Positions 1-6,300 of a stretch of DNA of 6,300 bases are shown here, in pieces. The translations under genes were made by a program, and so were the position numbers. Positions within the stretch are counted from its first letter, which is position 1. Every line of letters begins with the position of its first letter. The DNA comes from a virus (lineage: Duplodnaviria > Heunggongvirae > Uroviricota > Caudoviricetes). The stretch lies in IMG/VR virus record IMGVR_UViG_648276671_000006, positions 1 through 6,300 of that record. One strand, 5' to 3'. The notes under the pieces are model-generated. The model was not told the origin of the DNA. It saw only the letters and a list, made by a program, of their open reading frames with translations, and did no database searches.

Positions 1-203
1 GCTGAAAATGGCAGTAATGATTTATCCTCCGCCAGCGACTGGCGAACGGCAGGAACGAACCCGGACGGCAGATTACGCATGCTTTTCGGTTCCGGCTCCA
101 CCAGTATCCGGGTATTGTGGAATACTGGCATGGATTCACGGCCCAGCTTAAGGACCACCAACCCAAGTTCTGGTACCAGAACAGGTCGAAGTAATACCCG
201 CAC
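1..203 (-). CDS. hypothetical protein, truncated at the left window edge (N-terminus MRVLLRPVLVPELGLVVLKLGRESMPVFHNTRILVEPEPKSMRNLPSGFVPAVRQSLAEDKSLLPFS...)
   Basis: Minus-strand frame is open from GTG at 203..201 to position 1. GGAGG (212..208) lies 4 nt upstream, and the TAA stop of the preceding gene (207..205) sits inside the same GGAGGTAACGTG junction. An alternative in-frame ATG at 275..273 has only a weak GGA upstream. Not in the ORF track because it runs off the window. Product not recognised. Confidence 0.45.
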   Translation of the reverse strand, partial: MRVLLRPVLVPELGLVVLKLGRESMPVFHNTRILVEPEPKSMRNLPSGFVPAVRQSLAEDKSLLPFS

Positions 204-204
204 G

Positions 205-450
205 TTACCTCCAGATCCGTTGCTGGTATGTGCGGGATGGGCGCGGTGGGCGTTCGGAATAAGGGAGCCTGACATAGATTATCCAGTGACGATAATCGAG
301 GCTGAGGGCTTTCTTAATCTCGTATCCGCGTCTGCGGTAGTTCTGAATCAGCCATTCGGCCTGTTCTTCAGTGCAGGGGTTATGCTGGAACCAGTCTGGT
401 TTGAATGCGTGAAAACGCCGCTCATTGTAACTCGTTGCTTTTTGCGTCAT
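205..450 (-). CDS. hypothetical small protein (81 aa, MTQKATSYNERRFHAFKPDWFQHNPCTEEQAEWLIQNYRRRGYEI...)
   Basis: Track ORF 205..462 trimmed to the ATG at 450..448, which has GAGGA (460..456) 5 nt upstream. The N-terminal 50 residues look protein-like. The C-terminal 30 residues (RLPYSERPPRPSRTYQQRIWR) are low-complexity, so the true end is uncertain. Confidence 0.55.
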   Translation of the reverse strand: MTQKATSYNERRFHAFKPDWFQHNPCTEEQAEWLIQNYRRRGYEIKKALSLDYRHWIIYVRLPYSERPPRPSRTYQQRIWR

Positions 451-479
451 AACAATCCTCATGACGCATCATTATCAGA

Positions 480-511
480 CCCCACAGTGTTCAGCTATGG
501 GGTTTTATTAT
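480..511 (+). terminator. terminator-like hairpin with a plus-strand T-run, in the gap between two minus-strand genes
   Basis: CCCCACAG (480..487) pairs with CTATGGGG (495..502) with one mismatch, loop TGTTCAG, followed by TTTTATTAT on the plus strand. On the minus strand the same hairpin has no U-run after it. Confidence 0.3.
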
Positions 512-529
512 CTCCACTAACGGTGTCCG

Positions 530-748
530 CTACAAGCCCCCGGACGAATACTGCTGCACAATATCACGCAATACTGCGTGGGACACAATGCGTTCGTCAT
601 TATGCAGAGGGCGCACCCTTAATACCTTCCCCATTCGTCTCCAGACAGCTCTTTTACTATCAGGCAAACTATCCATCTCAGCAACCACTGCGCCATCAGA
701 GCGGCGAACAACTTCATATTCATGCTCCGTCAATGCGTGACTTCTCAT
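530..748 (-). CDS. hypothetical small protein (72 aa, MRSHALTEHEYEVVRRSDGAVVAEMDSLPDSKRAVWRRMGKVLRVRPLHNDERIVSHAVLRDIVQQYSSGGL)
   Basis: ATG at 748..746 with a strong AGGAGGAA 7 nt upstream. Balanced charged/hydrophobic composition. Lies downstream of the hok terminator, so it is probably a separate transcription unit or needs read-through. Confidence 0.6.
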   Translation of the reverse strand: MRSHALTEHEYEVVRRSDGAVVAEMDSLPDSKRAVWRRMGKVLRVRPLHNDERIVSHAVLRDIVQQYSSGGL

Positions 749-930
749 ATCGTATTTCCTCCTGGATCGTTACCTTCAAAATAAATCTTTCTGATAAGAG
801 AAATATAACCACCTGATGTGATTATTTCATCACCAATAATTGAGTGTTTTTTGCCCGCTCTCAATGAAATTTTTTTACGTCTGTTATCTAATCAGAAAGT
901 AGCGTGTCTTTTAAACAGTCGTTGATTTTG

Positions 931-957
931 GCAATAAAAAACCCGCCGAAGCGGGTT
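931..957 (-). terminator. rho-independent terminator of the hok transcript
   Basis: On the minus strand: AACCCGC-UUCG-GCGGGUU (plus 940..957) followed by UUUUAUUGC. GC-rich 7-bp stem with a UUCG tetraloop and U-run. Confidence 0.7.
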
Positions 958-960
958 AAG

Positions 961-1018
961 TGCGGGTGCGTTGAGGATGCCTGACACATCAGAGGTGGCG
1001 AGGGATTTCTCCCTCGCC
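961..1018 (-). promoter_or_regulatory. hok mRNA 3' elements: fbi-like box (961..976) and a perfect 9-bp hairpin (997..1018)
   Basis: The transcript here reads CCUCAACGCACCCGCA, complementary with one bulged C to the predicted 5' end UGCGGGUGCUUGAGG (1330..1316). GGCGAGGGA/UCCCUCGCC hairpin with a 4-nt loop sits just 3' of the hok stop. Confidence 0.5.
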
Positions 1019-1025
1019 TGGTCTC

Positions 1026-1181
1026 TTACTCCTCAGGTTCGTAAGCTGTGAAGACAGCGACCTCCGTCTGGCCGGTTCGGATTCGTACCTCGCAGAGGTC
1101 TTTCCTCGTTACCAGTGCCGTCACTATGACGGTTAAACAGATGACGATCAGGGCGATTAACATCGCCTTTTGCTGCTTCAT
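1026..1181 (-). CDS. hok: Hok/Gef-family type I toxin (51 aa, MKQQKAMLIALIVICLTVIVTALVTRKDLCEVRIRTGQTEVAVFTAYEPEE)
   Basis: Single hydrophobic transmembrane segment followed by the conserved RKxLCE.R...GxxEVAAF-like tail of Hok/Gef peptides. From memory it is closest to chromosomal HokD/RelF. ATG at 1181..1179 with AAGGAG 9 nt upstream. The 70-aa track ORF 1026..1238 is an in-frame N-terminal extension. Confidence 0.85.
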   Translation of the reverse strand: MKQQKAMLIALIVICLTVIVTALVTRKDLCEVRIRTGQTEVAVFTAYEPEE

Positions 1182-1227
1182 AGCCTGCTTCTCCTTGACC
1201 TTTCGGTCCGTAAGAGGCAATCTATAT

Positions 1228-1290
1228 GTGACGAGCATATAGGGGCCTCACTTCGATTTATAGTCGGGTGGGGCTTTTCTCTATCTGCCT
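1228..1290 (+). ncRNA. expected position of a Sok-like antisense RNA (approximate, not firmly located)
   Basis: By analogy with hok/sok loci, the antisense RNA should cover the leader-ORF SD (plus 1246..1251) and ATG (1236..1238). Plus-strand signals are weak: TTGACC (1195..1200), 17 nt, CAATCT; possible 3' stem 1245..1251/1268..1274 followed by TTTTCTCT. It may be degenerate. Confidence 0.2.
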
Positions 1291-1315
1291 TTGGTGGCAT
1301 GCCCGAGACAGATAG

Positions 1316-1361
1316 CCTCAAGCACCCGCAGCAATTCTACTTAACTCTCCTTTTCCCGCAA
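1316..1361 (-). promoter_or_regulatory. hok promoter and 5' tac-like box
   Basis: On the minus strand: TTGCGG (1361..1356), 16 nt, TAGAAT (1339..1334). Predicted start near 1328, giving a transcript of about 390 nt whose first 15 nt are complementary to 976..961. Confidence 0.45.
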
Positions 1362-1448
1362 ACCGTTTTTATCCCCATCGGCAAATCGAATACACCACCA
1401 GCGCCACCGCCAGTGCGATTCCTACCGTTGTGAATGCTTCAGGGCAGG

Positions 1449-1730
1449 TCATCGCAAAACATCCTCCGCGCTTATCAGTTCGTTCCGCTTCAGGTAGTCC
1501 ATCGCCTTCTCCGGTAATTTGCAGTCTGGATTAGCTTTTTTCAGTTGACTGACCAGTCGTTTAACCCACATTGTTAATTCGCCAACTTGGTTACTGGATG
1601 CTAATGGATTGTCGGCTTTACCCAGAATGACAGCACAGCAGGCCTCTTTGAGAACCCAATCAACAGCATCTTTCCATACTCCTGTTTCGACTGGTGGATT
1701 CTCACGCTTTACCTGTTCATAAAAGCGCAC
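1449..1730 (-). CDS. hypothetical protein (93 aa, VRFYEQVKRENPPVETGVWKDAVDWVLKEACCAVILGKADNPLASSNQVGELTMWVKRLVSQLKKANPDCKLPEKAMDYLKRNELISAEDVLR)
   Basis: Protein-like composition. The only start available is GTG at 1730..1728, with no convincing SD; it overlaps the upstream gene by 22 nt, so translation may be coupled. No in-frame ATG before residue 54. Confidence 0.5.
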   Translation of the reverse strand: MRFYEQVKRENPPVETGVWKDAVDWVLKEACCAVILGKADNPLASSNQVGELTMWVKRLVSQLKKANPDCKLPEKAMDYLKRNELISAEDVLR

Positions 1731-1957
1731 GGCTTTAACCAGTCCTTACGCGCCTGCTCCGAAGGAAATATCCCATGCCCCGAACCATATACTGCACCAC
1801 TGACCACCAGCTCTTTCGCCAGAACTTCTATCAGGTGTCTGGTAGCTCCGGTTTCATCTTCCAGTTGCTTACGCGTTTTCCTTCCGTCTCTGCGTACCAG
1901 TTCCACAATACGCGCCTTCAGTTGTTCCCTGTATTCAGGTGTAAAAGCGTTTCCCAT
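1709..1957 (-). CDS. small winged-helix-like protein (82 aa, MGNAFTPEYREQLKARIVELVRRDGRKTRKQLEDETGATRHLIEVLAKELVVSGAVYGSGHGIFPSEQARKDWLKPCAFMNR)
   Basis: Track ORF 1709..2014 begins at a TTG. The ATG at 1957..1955 has GAGG 5 nt upstream, overlapping the stop of the previous gene. Contains a K.T..EL....G.S...V...L...L...G.V motif also found twice in the 256-aa neighbour. Confidence 0.6.
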   Translation of the reverse strand: MGNAFTPEYREQLKARIVELVRRDGRKTRKQLEDETGATRHLIEVLAKELVVSGAVYGSGHGIFPSEQARKDWLKPCAFMNR

Positions 1958-1964
1958 AAACGCC

Positions 1965-2735
1965 TCACTTTTCCGATACAACGCGACTGGTGGAATCGAC
2001 AATCTGTCGAACAATATCCCGGTGCTTGTTCAGCTCCCGTAGCGCGGCGCAGACACGCTCCCACTTCTGGACATGGCTTTTCGCCCGACGCAGTTCACGA
2101 TTTGCCATATGCAGCGATGGTAAAATCAGGTCATCCGCTCGAGTTTCGGTGAACGATGACAACGACTGCACAATGTCCGCCACAGTTTCTGTTTTAATTT
2201 CTTCCTGTATTGCAGCTTCCTGTACAGGTAACGCAACGCCGGCTGGCTGAGGAAAGGCTTTACCATCATTTTCCGTTACCAATGCGACTTTCGGCTTTAC
2301 TGGTAAATTCTCGCCCGGCATGCAGTAGCGAAATTTACCGTTCTGGTTTACGCGTGCCAGCCGCCCCGTTGCGGTTACTACCGCCAGTGTGGAAGCAACC
2401 TTGCGAGTGCTGACACCGAACTTACCCGCCAGTTCCTCACACGTTTTAGCTCCCTCCTGACCGATAAACTCAATCATCATGTCAGCGGTAACTTTTCGTT
2501 CGACCTCCCTGGTTAACACATCTTGTGTTTCAGATTGTGCTGGCTGCTCTTCGGCTCCCCCTGATTCACCTTCGCCAGCCACACGCCAGGTGTATGCACT
2601 TTTATCAACGAAGCCAGCCTTTTTCAGTTCCCACAGCTCCTTCAGCACTTCTTCACGACTGATATCAAGTCGCGTAGTCAGTTCTACCGACGTGGCTTTT
2701 CCCATTGCTTTCAGTGCGTCAAAAACAGTCTCCAT
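1965..2735 (-). CDS. hypothetical protein with two tandem winged-helix-like motifs and a helical C-terminal region (256 aa)
   Basis: ATG at 2735..2733 with GGGAGGA 5 nt upstream; 33-nt gap after the P-like stop. Motifs [32 protein letters not shown] and [33 protein letters not shown]. No Walker A/B or nuclease motifs seen. Confidence 0.8.
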
Positions 2736-2768
2736 AAATTTCCTCCCGGTAAAAAATCACTTCTCAAC

Positions 2769-3434
2769 TCAAACAAAACCAGCCGCTTTCCGGCGTTCAT
2801 ACTCCTGTTTCAGCAACTCAATTGGCGTTGGTCCCGACGGGCGTTTGGGTGCTGCCAGTTGCCGCCGTACGGGCGGAACGCTGAGGCCGTTGCCAACATG
2901 CTTTGCCCATTTCGTCAGCTGCCGTTCTGCAAGCCGTTTTAACTCCCCTTCGGTCATCTGGCATTCAATCCCCTTTGAACGCATCTCGAGGCAAATGTGA
3001 TACAGCACAGGCTGAGACCACGGGTATTTATCGCTTCCGTCGTATCGCCAGGACTCATTGCGCCAGCGTCGGTACTCCTCCATCACGCCATCTACCGTCA
3101 GACCAAATGGATTTGCCCCGCTCTCCGAAATCAGCGCCACAAACTCAGCCAGGTCCGGAGGCCATGTTTCACCCGCCCGGCAGCGGTCCATGCACTGGCG
3201 GCAGACCTGCCGGATTTGCTGCTCAGTCATCGCGCCAATCTGTGCAATCCAGAGCTTCGAAGGTGCGGACCCGTTCTTCTGGGTCCAGCGGTTCGAATAA
3301 ACCTCCCCCATGAGTTCCCACAGCTTCCACGCCGTTTCCGTCGCTGATAAATCCGTTTTCACGTTCCCACTGTTCACGTGCTGCCCGAATTTCCTGAACT
3401 GCCCGTGATGCGGTGCCACCTGGTGCTGCTGCAT
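2769..3434 (-). CDS. replication protein P-like helicase loader
   Basis: The C-terminal two thirds align by eye with lambda P ([18 protein letters not shown] vs ESYPWKSNAHYWLVTNLY; [13 protein letters not shown] vs TDAELRRKAADEL). Start is uncertain: ATG at 3434 has a G-rich SD but overlaps the O-like gene by 212 nt; internal ATGs at 3311 and 3230 (the latter an ATGACTGA overlap with the O-like stop) are alternatives. Confidence 0.7.
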
Positions 3435-4263
3435 GGCTCCCCCCCTTGCTGACTGGTTTAACCTGCGCCCTGACGTGATTTACGTGACGGGCAAATTTCT
3501 GCTCCCACTGAACCTGCGTGAAAACTTTTCCCTCCTCTGCCCAGTAATCCCGGAAGGCGGCAAGTTCAGCAGGTGTAAATTCCGGCTCCGGCAAAGCCAC
3601 TCCCCACAGTGCAGCCCGCCGTCGAAAATCCGGCGACGGATACCAGTCATCGGTCATCGGAAATTTTCCGATGCGTTCGCTCAGGCCATCCAGGAATGCA
3701 GGGGGCGTTGCCTGTGACGGCAAAACTTCCCTCTCACTGGTCGGAGCACTCTCGCGTGCGTTATGTATGGGGTTTAGATCTTTAGGTTCCTTTGGGTTCC
3801 GTGATCCGTTTTTGGGTGTCTTTGATGGAAAATTTGGGTGCCTTTGGTTATTTTCTATGCTGCAAAGAGTCCCGTTTTTGGGTCTGTTTTGTGCGGAAAC
3901 ACAACCGTTTTTGGTGCTGTTTTTATTAACAGTACCAATTTTACCCACCTTTAAAGACTCCCGTTTTTGGGTGTATTCAGGCTCGGCAACACTTTCTTCA
4001 ACACCGATAAGTTGGTACACCACAATTTGCTTTGTTCGACCTTTTCTCTCACCGGTATCAACAATTAACCCAATCTCCATCAGGTGCCGTAAGCTGTCCT
4101 GCACAGTTTTTTTGTTCAGTTCCGTTACTTCTGCCAGTGCAGATACAGACGGGTATGCACACAAATCGGCACCGCACATATCAGCAAGCCAGGTCAATAC
4201 TGACTTACTGGATGAACTGCCGGTTTTCACCCTTTTAGCCCATCGTAGTGCATCGATACTCAT
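3223..4263 (-). CDS. O-like replication initiator: N-terminal HTH domain, PKNG-repeat linker, DnaT-like C-terminal domain
   Basis: Track ORF 3223..4338 starts at TTG. The ATG at 4263..4261 has GAGG 5 nt upstream ([15 protein letters not shown]...). N-terminal region resembles phage replication-initiator HTH domains; [48 protein letters not shown] resembles the DnaT C-terminal domain. Iteron-like repeats lie inside the linker-coding segment. Confidence 0.8.
3783..3976. repeat. iteron-like direct repeats (CCGTTTTTGGGTG family), putative replication origin inside the initiator gene
   Basis: Near-identical copies at 3806..3818, 3872..3884, 3905..3916 and 3961..3973, plus degenerate TTTGGGT(T/G)CC copies at 3791..3800 and 3833..3842. 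An AT-rich stretch lies at 3917..3958. On the coding strand the repeats translate to recurring PKNG. Confidence 0.55.
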
Positions 4264-4786
4264 GCGAACCTCGACCAGGTATCTGTTGACCCGCAAAGCA
4301 ATGTTGGTATTGCTGACGATATGCACGTTTGAAAGCAATAGCTTTTTCTATAAGCTCGTCAGCCTCACGCTCCACAACAGTTGGATCTGCAAAAAGCAGC
4401 CCGGACTCCACCACATCACCATACTCTTTGTTTAACCCGGCGATCATGTACGTAATGCTTTTTCCGTCAGTAATTTCACAATACAACCTGAAATCACTGA
4501 TCCGGATAGCCTCCATAATTGCCGGAATCAGCGCCGTGAATTTTTCACGCTTATCCCTGGTGTCGATAGCTTTCCAGCGTTCAAATATCTTCACCCTGTT
4601 AACGCCAAGCGCCCGCTGATCAACCACGCCATCATCAAATGTGACACGTTGAACATCGATGTTCGGGCGCTCTTTCAGAGCCCAGAAGGCTTCTGTGATT
4701 AATATCGTCGCCTGCTCCTGCGTCATTCCCGGGCTGCATACCCAGGAGTCCAGAGCCTCACGAGCCTGCTCAGGAGTGAATATCAT
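4235..4786 (-). CDS. YdaT-like protein, positional equivalent of lambda CII (183 aa)
   Basis: Sits between the Cro-like gene and the initiator, as cII does in lambda. ATG at 4786..4784 overlaps the Cro-like stop by 17 nt. Assignment to the YdaT family is from memory of prophage YdaS/YdaT pairs, not from a search. Confidence 0.7.
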
Positions 4787-5063
4787 TGTTCACCGCCAGT
4801 GATTCATTTGTCATACACTTATTCCCACAAGGCAGCCCATCGGTTAGATTGGGGTAAATATCTGGGCGAAGCTCGTGGGGGGTGACTTGCCATTCAAGGA
4901 GCACACAAAGAGGAATGACCCGCTCAGCTGGTATTGATTTATTGGCAAACCATTTTCCAACCCCTTGCCCACTAATCCCAAAGCGTTCTCCAATCTCGAC
5001 AAAGGAAAAGTTTTTTTTAATCTTGTCTCGTAGATCGTTTAGTTTTTGATGTTTTTTAGCCAC
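4770..5063 (-). CDS. Cro/YdaS-like HTH regulator (97 aa from the GTG start)
   Basis: HTH FVEIGERFGISGQGVGKWFANKSIPAERV and an ELRPD motif as in YdaS-type Cro proteins. Track ORF 4770..5162 would leave only 11 nt to the divergent repressor. GTG at 5063..5061 has a near-consensus SD GAGGTGAGG (5078..5070). ATG at 5087 is an alternative, possibly leaderless. Confidence 0.7.
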   Translation of the reverse strand: MAKKHQKLNDLRDKIKKNFSFVEIGERFGISGQGVGKWFANKSIPAERVIPLCVLLEWQVTPHELRPDIYPNLTDGLPCGNKCMTNESLAVNNDIHS

Positions 5064-5173
5064 ACAACACCTCACCTCTTGGTTCATCACTGGGAGCATA
5101 ACAGGCGAAAGTTTACGTTTCAAGAACAAGGAAACAAATAGTTGTACTGATAATCGAAACATTTGGTTGTAAA
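5064..5173. promoter_or_regulatory. divergent promoter/operator region of the immunity switch
   Basis: Three operator-like sites about 25 bp apart: GAAAGTTTACGTTTC (5107..5121, palindromic GAAA-N7-TTTC), GAAACAAATAGTTGTAC (5131..5147) and GAAACATTTGGTTGTAA (5156..5172). Leftward promoter TTGAAA (5123..5118), 17 nt, TATGCT (5100..5095). Rightward promoter CTGATA (5147..5152), 17 nt, TAAAAT (5170..5175). Confidence 0.55.
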
Positions 5174-5599
5174 ATGCAGGCTATGAACGATACCGTTAAC
5201 AATGTTTTTGCAAAAAGAATCCAGCAAGTGATGGATGAAAATGGCTGGAATAAGTCAGACCTGGCTAAGCGGGTCATGTTATCTCACACCGCGGTTCAGA
5301 ATTGGGCAAAAGGCATCAGCGTAGCCAGCGGTGTAAGATTAAAAAGGCTCGCAGCTGTAACAGGAAAGCCTGAGTACTGGTTTTTTATGGATCGGGATGC
5401 AGGAGGCGATGAAAATCACCAAGATATACCAATACCCATTGTGCTTGATGACAAAGAGAAAGCCCTGCTCTCAATTTTCAATCAAATGCCAGAAGCAGAA
5501 AAGTTACGCCTAATTATCCATGCTAAGGAAGTCCTGAGAGAGCTGGAACTGCTTAAGAGCGATGTTTTCGATATTATCAACGATCAATTAAAACCATAG
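5174..5599 (+). CDS. DicA-like HTH (XRE-family) prophage repressor, 141 aa
   Basis: N-terminal HTH SDLAKRVMLSHTAVQNWAKG; the C-terminal segment LDDKEKALLSIFNQMPEAEKLRLIIHAKEV resembles the DicA C-terminal region. No peptidase S24 (LexA-like) domain. Divergent from the Cro-like gene. The start may instead be the ATG at 5183, because the -10 TAAAAT overlaps the first ATG. Confidence 0.85.
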   Translation: MQAMNDTVNNVFAKRIQQVMDENGWNKSDLAKRVMLSHTAVQNWAKGISVASGVRLKRLAAVTGKPEYWFFMDRDAGGDENHQDIPIPIVLDDKEKALLSIFNQMPEAEKLRLIIHAKEVLRELELLKSDVFDIINDQLKP

Positions 5600-5624
5600 C
5601 TAACAAACCATCCACACATCAGAC

Positions 5625-5652
5625 AAAAAGCACCTTTCTGGTGCTTTTTTTT
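5625..5652 (+). terminator. rho-independent terminator after the repressor gene
   Basis: AAAAAGCACC-TTTCT-GGTGCTTTTT: perfect 10-bp stem, 5-nt loop, then a T-run to 5652. The A-run before the stem makes it potentially bidirectional. Confidence 0.7.
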
Positions 5653-5661
5653 GCCCAGAAA

Positions 5662-5712
5662 CGAAATTTTCTATTTCGCACACTTTACACGCGAAAGTTA
5701 TTGTTGCACAAT
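5662..5712 (+). promoter_or_regulatory. second operator-bearing promoter (PL-like) for the rightward ydfA-like operon
   Basis: GAAATTTTCTATTTC (5663..5677) is a second GAAA-N7-TTTC palindrome. GAAAGTTATTGTTGCAC (5693..5709) matches 12 of 17 positions of the 5131..5147 site. Candidate promoter TTTACA (5684..5689), 17 nt, CACAAT (5707..5712). Confidence 0.35.
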
Positions 5713-5790
5713 CCACACCATCAACAACGAAACGCATCGTTGTCAGGCTAAAGTTCCGCTACCCCGGCGTTAAGGGGAAATGAGGTCAAC

Positions 5791-5943
5791 ATGGATACTA
5801 TCGATCTTGGCAACAACGAATCTCTGGTGTACGGCGTGTTTCCCAACCAGGACGGCACGTTCACCGCGATGACGTATACCAAAAGCAAAACATTTAAAAC
5901 CGAAGCTGGCGCGCGTCGCTGGTTAGCCAGAAACACTGACTGA
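5791..5943 (+). CDS. YdfA-like small protein (50 aa, MDTIDLGNNESLVYGVFPNQDGTFTAMTYTKSKTFKTEAGARRWLARNTD)
   Basis: Below the ORF-track length cutoff. ATG at 5791 with GAGG 5 nt upstream; stop TGA at 5941..5943. Its position immediately downstream of a DicA-like repressor matches the dicA-ydfA arrangement of the Qin prophage. Sequence identity to YdfA is from uncertain memory. Confidence 0.6.
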   Translation: MDTIDLGNNESLVYGVFPNQDGTFTAMTYTKSKTFKTEAGARRWLARNTD

Positions 5944-5954
5944 TGAGGTTGACG

Positions 5955-6300
5955 ATGGAATTTAAAGATTTACCAAAAGAAATCCAGTCCATTGCTGCAA
6001 CGACACTTAGTGATAGCCTGGTGGAAATTAACCCGGCATACATCAAAAAGGAAACCATCGATAATTTGGTTCGTAATGTGCGCGATGCGTTTACCGGATT
6101 GTACTCCGTTTCGGTAACAAACAACCAGAATACTGAAGAAGCTGCAAAGCGGAATGCCTCGGTGACGGGTTTTCATGTCGAGGAAAAGTATTCAAAAAAG
6201 AATTCTGGAAAACTGCAAAAAAATTGCAGAGCGAGAACTGTCATCTCCTGCGGCAAATCGGTTCTTTCTATGAGGAAAGTTATTCAGATGACACAGGATT
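5955..6300 (+). CDS. hypothetical protein, truncated at the right window edge (MEFKDLPKEIQSIAATTLSDSLVEINPAYIKKETIDNLVRNVRDAFTGLYSVSVTNNQNTEEAAKRNASVTGFHVEEKYSKK...)
   Basis: ATG at 5955 with GAGG 6 nt upstream, 11 nt after the ydfA-like stop. The frame stays open to position 6300. The first 80 residues look protein-like; the last 35 are lysine/serine-rich and contain a perfect hairpin, so the real gene may end earlier in other strains. Confidence 0.4.
   Translation, partial: MEFKDLPKEIQSIAATTLSDSLVEINPAYIKKETIDNLVRNVRDAFTGLYSVSVTNNQNTEEAAKRNASVTGFHVEEKYSKKNSGKLQKNCRARTVISCGKSVLSMRKVIQMTQD

Follow-up and report, generated by a model that had tools for sequence, protein, structure and literature searches.

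The 136-amino acid (aa) repressors of the Gifsy prophages of Salmonella are not cleaved when the prophage is induced, but are removed from the DNA by small antirepressors under LexA control (PMC3121763). DicA of the Qin prophage and RacR of the Rac prophage, both of E. coli K-12, were placed in the Gifsy repressor group by Lemire et al. (PMC3121763). Switches of this Gifsy/DicA class are widespread in enterobacteria and their operators have barely been mapped, those of Gifsy having so far been shown only by electrophoretic mobility shift assay (EMSA) of a right-operator fragment (PMC3121763). In Qin, DicA represses dicC and activates dicA, and its demonstrated site is the palindromic Oc beside dicC (PMC3441716), and together with the antirepressor Rem, DicA and DicC behave as a bistable switch of the CI/Cro kind (PMC10448788). 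In prophage CP-933P of E. coli O157:H7, low-dose PaaR2 represses the right promoter (PR) and activates the repressor-maintenance promoter (PRM); the PaaR2 and YdaS footprints overlap, and YdaS fills PRM first (PMC8630535). Here, we analysed a stretch of 6,300 nucleotides (nt), positions 1 to 6,300 of the Caudoviricetes record IMGVR_UViG_648276671_000006 (hereafter the window), and focused on positions 5064-5173, between a repressor gene and a Cro-like gene. On balance, we think it probable that this region is the right operator (OR) of a Gifsy/DicA-type lambdoid immunity cassette, on whose overlapping sites two proteins have opposite orders of affinity.

Three conserved sites between the repressor and Cro-like genes

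We found three sites, S1, S2 and S3 (Table 1), in the order and position at which a preliminary description of this DNA had placed them, with start-to-start distances of 24 bp (S1-S2) and 25 bp (S2-S3). All three fit a common 15-bp register, GAAAs-N5-GTTky (s, G or C; k, G or T; y, C or T), with GAAA in each left half. S1 is the GAAA-N7-TTTC palindrome that had been noted in the spacer of the leftward PR-like promoter, and it also covers 4 bp of the -35 hexamer of that promoter. S2 and S3 are direct repeats with 13 of 16 positions identical. Both had been thought to overlap the repressor promoter; S3 does occupy the whole spacer of the rightward PRM-like promoter, its last base being the first base of the -10 hexamer, whereas S2 stops 1 bp short of the weak -35 on its upstream side and only abuts the promoter. 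We also considered the right half of S2 as a -35 hexamer of PRM or of another promoter and rejected it, as it would stand 22 bp from the -10 hexamer and there is no usable -10 hexamer 16-18 bp downstream. The suggested echo of lambda OR1-OR3 was borne out, in that the three sites are interleaved with two divergent sigma-70 promoters and the repressor and Cro-like genes lie on either side.

The pattern GAAASNNNNNGTTKY matched the window five times against 0.23 expected, and none of 200 shuffles reached five, a statistic that is inflated because the pattern was derived post hoc, after the sites had been seen. All five matches are on the plus strand, within the two intergenic regions flanking the repressor gene. 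GAAA-N7-TTTC by itself matched twice, a count that 9 of 200 shuffles also reached. Stronger support comes from relatives. We collected 112 loci, among which 56 operator regions are distinct, by scanning contigs from genomes, viruses and metagenomes, and every locus has a divergent YdaS-like Cro gene next to the repressor gene. We aligned the six members that carry the repressor recognition helix LSHTAVQNWAKG (the window and loci L011, L012, L003, L004 and L118), and found 28 of 30 half-site positions invariant, compared with 5 of 15 in the central spacers and 7 of 19 in the linkers (28/30 versus 12/34, Fisher p = 1.3e-6, the sequences being non-independent). Since the half-sites, unlike the spacers and linkers, are invariant among these members, we regard the sites as real. 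The AGCATA and GTTTCAA elements of the PR-like promoter were invariant as well.

Among the same-helix relatives, S1 always reads GAAAG-N5-GTTTC, with its right half inside the PR -35 (TTGAAAC), and S3 always reads GAAAC-N5-GTTGT. The direct-repeat likeness of S2 and S3, pointed out before, holds in the window and proved to be a property of a sub-lineage: S2 is GAAAC-N5-GTTGT in the window, L011 and L012, and GAAAG-N5-GTTTT in L003, L004, L118 and L160. The S2-S3 spacing is exactly 25 bp in 54 of 54 distinct regions aligned on the -10 hexamer, whatever the motif, while the S1-S2 spacing ranges from 22 to 25 bp even with an identical repressor helix, so the spacing constraint is apparently tied to PRM and not to cooperativity between S1 and S2.

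Table 1. Positions of the operator sites, promoters, genes and other elements around the repressor gene, numbered in the window
Feature	Positions	Strand	Description
S1 (OR1-like)	5107-5121		GAAAGTTTACGTTTC = GAAAG-TTTAC-GTTTC, symmetric type
S2 (OR2-like)	5131-5145		GAAACAAATAGTTGT = GAAAC-AAATA-GTTGT
S3 (OR3-like)	5156-5170		GAAACATTTGGTTGT = GAAAC-ATTTG-GTTGT
PR-like promoter	5095-5123	-	TTGAAA (5123-5118)-17-TATGCT (5100-5095), extended -10 TG; predicted to drive the cro(ydaS-like)-ydaT-replication operon
PRM-like promoter	5147-5175	+	CTGATA (5147-5152)-17-TAAAAT (5170-5175), weak -35
Left-operator (OL) distal site	5663-5677		GAAATTTTCTATTTC = GAAAT-TTTCT-ATTTC, symmetric; ends 6 bp upstream of the PL-like -35
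OL proximal site	5693-5707		GAAAGTTATTGTTGC = GAAAG-TTATT-GTTGC, asymmetric; fills the PL-like spacer and abuts the -10
Left-promoter (PL)-like promoter	5684-5712	+	TTTACA-17-CACAAT, predicted driver of the ydfA-like (DUF1391) operon
Leader hairpin	5724-5743	+	ACAACG-N8-CGTTGT; contains the pattern match at 5729
Repressor gene	5183-5599	+	138 aa from ATG 5183; Gifsy/DicA-type short HTH_3
Repressor gene intrinsic terminator	5625-5652	+	10-bp stem, then T8
Cro-like (YdaS family) gene	4770-5063	-	97 aa from GTG 5063, Shine-Dalgarno (SD) sequence GAGGTGAGG; PF15943, 36.7 bits
YdaT-like (CII-analogue) gene	4235-4786	-	183 aa; PF06254, 26.2 bits; phrog_163 CII-like transcriptional activator, 4.9e-39
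Candidate YdaT box	4776-4793		GTGAATATCATTGTTCAC = GTGAAT-ATCATT-GTTCAC, 6-N6-6 inverted repeat

A matching pair of sites at the PL-like promoter

The PL-like promoter carries only two recognisable operator sites. The pair stands at equal positions in L003, L004, L011 and L118, where the distal site is again symmetric; among the same-helix relatives the distal site is always GAAAk-N5-mTTTC (m, A or C) and the proximal site GAAAs-N5-GTTGy. We rejected the pattern match at 5729-5743 as a third OL site, as it consists of one arm and the loop of the leader hairpin and is conserved regardless of operator type.

The PL leader of about 70 nt (5719-5790, from the predicted PL start) is kept in 65 distinct loci of every immunity type, including Gifsy-2. 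The stem of its first hairpin varies by a U.G wobble, a G.U wobble and one compensatory G-C pair, and because these variants are wobble or compensatory on the plus strand we read the leader as a plus-strand RNA hairpin. Downstream of it lies a second hairpin, CCCC-GGCGTTAA-GGGG, whose loop GGCGAYAAG resembles a P22-type boxB; no N-like gene was evident. A search of the whole window against Rfam (E <= 1) gave only a chance-level SpF10 match in 5000-5800 (26 bits against a gathering score of 60) and no leader family.

Covariation of the sites with the repressor and Cro-like proteins

The symmetric half-site changes along with the repressor recognition helix in each type that we compared. The helix TAVQNW (LSHTAVQNW in this phage) goes with GAAAs...sTTTC, TSVRKW (Gifsy) with rrAAC...GTTCy (r, A or G), TAVRKW (E. 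coli SLK172) with AAAAC...GTTTy, TPQAVQQW with GAAAA...TTTTC, SPQAVQQW with ACAAG...CTTGT, and SPQATHQW with TCAAG...CTTGA. The reading head of Cro, GIS[SG]Q[AG]VGKW, is essentially identical across the TAVQNW, TAVRKW and TSVRKW types, and across these three repressor types the S3 core AAC-N4-GGTTGT (AAC-N5-GTTGT) is constant in all group-A relatives. S3 reads GAAAC-N5-GTTGT in all loci of this phage's type (W-type) and in the SLK172, Gifsy-2, L014 and L092 types, among which S1 and OL differ; in the remaining Gifsy-type loci the left half of S3 is GGAAC, AAAAC or CAAAC, and only AAC-N5-GTTGT is kept. Within the S3 spacer the last base, G, is fixed, and drift at the four bases before it has produced ten different central spacers of five bases.

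Outside this group, loci L089/L090 and L010 of the other clade share the repressor helix and the S1-S2 region and have different Cro helices, and the spacer and right half of S3 read GCGGC-CTTGT in L089/L090 versus GTAGG-TTTGT in L010. Pair identities were computed over all pairs of distinct loci for the S1-S2 region and for the S3 spacer plus right half: they were 0.80 and 0.74 for pairs sharing the repressor helix only, 0.53 and 0.78 for pairs sharing the Cro helix only, and 0.41 and 0.56 for the baseline pairs sharing neither. The tight linkage of the repressor, Cro and operator, together with shared descent, confounds this co-variation. In these comparisons, S1 and the stretch from S1 to S2 go with the type of repressor. 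A viral-contig scan with the Gifsy-2 Cro found no unrelated repressor paired with a group-A Cro head; it yielded only Gifsy-type and group-B loci, a further W-type locus and other immunity types whose Cro heads differ (L163-L200).

Loci L119/L120 (E. coli SLK172 and E423) represent a third group-A immunity type, with the helix TAVRKW and sites AAAAC-N5-GTTTy. Their Cro reading head is as in the window, their S3 is GAAAC-CTTTG-GTTGT, and they share the Cro C-terminal extension and PL leader variant of the window; in E423 the annotated repressor is N-terminally shortened.

It is possible, though we hold it as a doubtful proposal, that the GAAAC-N5-GTTGT class with its AAC-N4-GGTTGT core is the operator of the Cro-like protein and not a weak repressor site, so that cro, S3 and PRM form a unit that stays constant across at least three heteroimmune repressor specificities; S2 may then have been converted into a second Cro-type site in this phage. 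If this is true, the Cro of one prophage could shut repressor synthesis of a heteroimmune co-resident prophage, in parallel to the known trans-acting Gifsy antirepressors, and the lysogeny of co-resident prophages could be influenced via both. If it is false, the locus is simply another lambda-like operator.

A model with opposite affinity orders on shared sites

In the reading that we favour, the 138-aa, non-cleavable helix-turn-helix (HTH) repressor would bind as a dimer, tightest at the symmetric sites (S1 and distal OL), and would thereby shut PR and PL. It would fill S2 with help from S1, stimulate PRM from S2, and reach S3 only at high concentration, which would result in autorepression. 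The Cro-like protein would read the same register and prefer the AAC-N4-GGTTGT core (S3, and here S2 too), stopping repressor synthesis first and its own promoter later, and the two site flavours would encode opposite filling orders for the two proteins. YdaT, the CII analogue, would act chiefly at the inverted repeat that spans the start of ydaT, and induction would be expected to come from an antirepressor encoded elsewhere and not from repressor cleavage.

The preliminary description had proposed that two site classes would suit two different regulators. One part of this idea holds, as the flavours recur by position in the same-helix relatives (S1 and distal OL versus S3 and proximal OL); the other part fits less well, as all sites share one 15-bp frame and GAAA and the class of S2 is unstable. 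From these comparisons, graded and opposite affinities on shared sites seem likeliest, and appear to fit better than separate operators for each protein.

Several points weigh against the model of opposite affinity orders. The protein-to-site assignments are inferred from sequence, the pair comparisons are confounded as stated above, and S2 changes class within a single helix type. The Cro helix PQTVSLW is found with both TTTGT and CTTGT S3 halves. The proximal OL of Gifsy-2 and SLK172 is GTTTT, lacking the G. In ACAAG-N5-CTTGT-type phages the TTGT of S3 is the plain palindromic consensus, and because TTGT abuts the -10 hexamer in every type, the asymmetry of S3 is possibly imposed by the promoter and not directed by Cro. 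As to activation geometry, the centre of lambda OR2 lies at -42, and that of S2 lies near -44/-45 from ATG 5183, 2-3 bp further upstream. Finally, DicA in vivo bound the palindromic Oc and not Om or Oa in isolation, which fits a stricter partition of sites between the proteins (PMC3441716).

Alternative explanations

The asymmetric right halves might be degenerate, forced by promoter overlap, with the repressor and Cro reading all sites alike save for overall strength, a reading that we consider unlikely. In keeping with it, sTTGT at the end of S3 is fused to the TAnAAT -10 hexamer in all 56 distinct regions, whatever the immunity type, TTG(T/C) abuts the -10 hexamer at PL in most loci, the right half of S1 is embedded in the PR -35, and S2 has turned to GTTTT in four lineages. 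However, TTG at -15 to -13 differs from the canonical extended -10 (TG at -15/-14), and the PR promoters of these phages do not retain TTG. The window, L011/L012 and the GAAAA-type phages (two unrelated types) have G at site position 14 of S2 with no -10 hexamer adjacent, and the W-type proximal OL retains this G even when it is followed by the consensus C at position 15 (GTTGC). Moreover, a promoter constraint sits poorly with the free divergence of the first four S3 spacer bases beside a fixed last spacer G and fixed AAC/GTTGT.

A strict partition, with S1 and the distal OL read by the repressor only and S2, S3 and the proximal OL by Cro only as two operator systems, seems improbable to us. 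The in vivo operator assay of DicA fits it, as do the S3 core and Cro HTH, which stay constant over three repressor types while S1 and OL change, and the authors of the CP-933P study noted two repeat types in its intergenic region (PMC8630535). Against it, every site stands in one register and has GAAA, the left half of the repressor type, the left half of S3 varies at its first two positions with repressor type (GAAAG, ACAAG, TCAAG and GGAAC), and the class of S2 is not conserved. The weak -35 of the PRM type and the fixed 25 bp between S2 and S3 fit repressor-dependent activation and autorepression, and PaaR2 protects a continuous stretch of about 78 bp that overlaps the YdaS footprint (PMC8630535).

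The preliminary description had also raised the possibility that YdaT is the second regulator and binds one of the site classes; this now looks very unlikely. Rac YdaT does footprint the racR-ydaS intergenic region, over the ydaS promoter, without an evident motif there, its own box being ATGATT-CATGAA-AATCAA (PMC11879457), so YdaT may have a minor part at the operator here too. The sole perfect 6-N6-6 box match in the window is at the ydaS/ydaT junction (Table 1), with the ydaT ATG (4786-4784) in its spacer, over the ydaT start as in Rac and CP-933P, and its outer TGA-N10-TCA is kept in L011/L012 and in the Qin ydfX remnant. No YdaT-box-like sequence was found in 5064-5173 at <=3 mismatches. 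The box match that lies nearest to the operator, 5183-5200 with 2 mismatches, lies in a stretch that is conserved as coding sequence, and about one such match is expected by chance per 6.3 kb (an estimate). Furthermore, Gifsy-2 keeps the operator architecture with a P22-C1-like CII analogue and not YdaT. Most likely YdaT acts at its own candidate box, judging from these matches. A 14-bp perfect palindrome, GAACATCGATGTTC, at 4651-4664, 120 bp further inside ydaT, is a possible secondary YdaT site.

It is scarcely credible that the repeats bind nothing and merely resemble one another by chance within AT-rich intergenic DNA: the post hoc pattern statistic and the frequency of two GAAA-N7-TTTC matches in shuffles leave some room for it, but the half-sites and not the spacers are conserved position by position across six relatives, the same architecture recurs in 56 distinct regions with motifs that change with the repressor helix, and a matching site pair stands at the PL-like promoter.

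Genes around the operator

The genes that had been guessed to flank the operator, a repressor, a Cro/YdaS-like and a YdaT-like gene, were confirmed by HTH_3, YdaS/Cro-like and YdaT-like matches (Table 1; cut-offs of 30 bits for PF15943 and 21 bits for PF06254). In both the mechanical open reading frame and the NCBI gene call, the repressor begins with ATG 5174, which lies within the -10 hexamer TAAAAT(G). ATG 5183 has no SD and begins 7 nt after the end of the PRM-like -10 hexamer; every related region keeps an ATG 6-7 nt after TAnAAT, and the upstream ATG within TAAAATG is out of frame in L003-L005. Because of this conserved geometry and the out-of-frame upstream ATG, we take ATG 5183 as the true start, and the repressor mRNA is probably leaderless from the PRM-like promoter. 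Leaderless mRNA has been demonstrated experimentally for paaR2 of CP-933P and for lambda cI (PMC8630535).

The Pfam matches of the repressor are HTH_3, HTH_26 and HTH_8 only (138-141 aa), and an S24 peptidase or cleavage domain is absent. The C-terminal block LLSxFNQxPEAEK is shared with relatives. In a solved-structure search the repressor matched nothing beyond the HTH, with marginal HipB HTH matches (E ~0.1). Records of the exact repressor protein are limited to NCBI assembly GCA_000176655.2 (scaffold GL884357.1) and one Logan read assembly. The best solved relatives of the Cro-like protein are the Cro proteins 3bd1 (Xfaso 1 Cro, E = 0.005) and 5w8y. The ydaS-like and ydaT-like genes stand in tandem downstream of PR and are followed leftward by an O-like gene with a DnaT domain and then by a lambda-P-like gene; the DUF1391 (ydfA-like) gene lies downstream of the PL-like promoter. 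No intergenic LexA box was found in the 6.3-kb window. The only perfect CTGT-N8-ACAG in it, CTGTTTTTATTAACAG at 3917-3932, lies within the O-like replication gene and could be a chance occurrence or a feature of the origin region.

Rarity of the immunity cassette

The immunity cassette, about 4897-5738 (840 bp: cro HTH, OR, repressor, OL and PL), is set in a prophage backbone that is otherwise common in E. coli. We searched 5,426 complete E. coli genomes as well as 50,697 phage records and found nothing close to 4897-5738, only matches to the flanks and one 68%-identical locus of the same type, L118. The flanks 4700-4896 and 5739-5800 show 86-100% identity among the E. coli records listed, of more than 2,900 matching, and the conserved parts comprise the 5' end of ydaT with the last ~42 codons of the cro-like gene on one side and the PL leader from the first hairpin on at the other. 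This mosaic pattern suggests that the immunity cassette is exchangeable and that a breakpoint lies within cro. More broadly, the 56 distinct operator regions, each with its repressor and Cro reading heads, amount to a table of natural specificity swaps.

Elsewhere in the window, a hok/sok-type toxin-antisense locus lies at 1026-1327 on the minus strand, with a Hok-like open reading frame (MKQQKAMLIALIVICLTVIVTALVTRKDLCEVRIRTGQTEVAVFTAYEPEE) and an Rfam sok match of 108 bits against a gathering score of 59. A weak match to isrK, an Hfq-binding small RNA family, at 936-1017 on the minus strand scored 31 bits, below the gathering score of 50.

Comparison with known switches

The locus resembles lambda OR in having three sites at intervals of about 2.3 helical turns among the divergent promoters PR and PRM, a weak PRM -35 by the middle site, a second operator at PL and a leaderless repressor mRNA, which is predicted here. 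In lambda, sequence differences from site to site give CI and Cro opposite filling orders. The class difference here is overt, amounting to two bases of one half-site; unlike those of lambda, the sites are built on a 15-bp core whose central 5 bp form the spacer, and only two are recognisable at PL. Since the repressor, unlike lambda CI, carries no S24/LexA-like domain, induction is expected by antirepressor and not by RecA-stimulated cleavage.

Rac differs in having four RacR operators and several racR promoters (PMC11879457). Qin shares the repressor superfamily, with the C-terminal LLxLFNxLPExE motif visible in DicA, three sequence-defined operators between divergent genes and a downstream ydfA (DUF1391) operon, and its ydfX remnant is 88% identical to the N-terminus of the YdaT of this phage; its DicA operators, in contrast, are TTGTTAG-N6-CTAACAA, and DicC stands outside the YdaS family. 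CP-933P likewise has divergent repressor and YdaS genes about 100 bp apart, a PL/OL analogue, and YdaT as a CII analogue that binds an inverted repeat at the ydaS/ydaT junction (PMC8630535, PMC9986795). It differs in its GTTTAGTAA-type operator with four palindromes, in the toxin-antitoxin pair carried by the repressor operon, and in its YdaT box, TTGATT-N6-AATCAA versus GTGAAT-N6-GTTCAC here.

Among the closest counterparts are Gifsy-1 and Gifsy-2 (GfoR/GtgR). Their repressors are 64% identical to residues 1-134 of the present one, fall in the same length class and have no cleavage domain, and the Cro HTH is nearly identical (HFGISSQAVGKWL). They also have three sites with 25 bp between S2 and S3, and an S3 of GAAAC-N5-GTTGT fused to TAAAAT and followed by ATG; their PL-like operator likewise has two sites, and the conserved PL leader is the same. 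Gifsy-2 carries its P22-C1-like CII analogue in the place of YdaT, and the Gifsy repressors have the helix TSVRKW instead of TAVQNW, with S1, S2 and OL of rrAAC-N5-GTTCy instead of GAAAs-N5-sTTTC. Because these site sequences differ, Gifsy and this phage are expected to be heteroimmune. The switch type is thus already known and the DNA specificity is new: the helix LSHTAVQNW with the operator GAAAs-N5-sTTTC is a previously undescribed immunity specificity of the Gifsy/DicA class.

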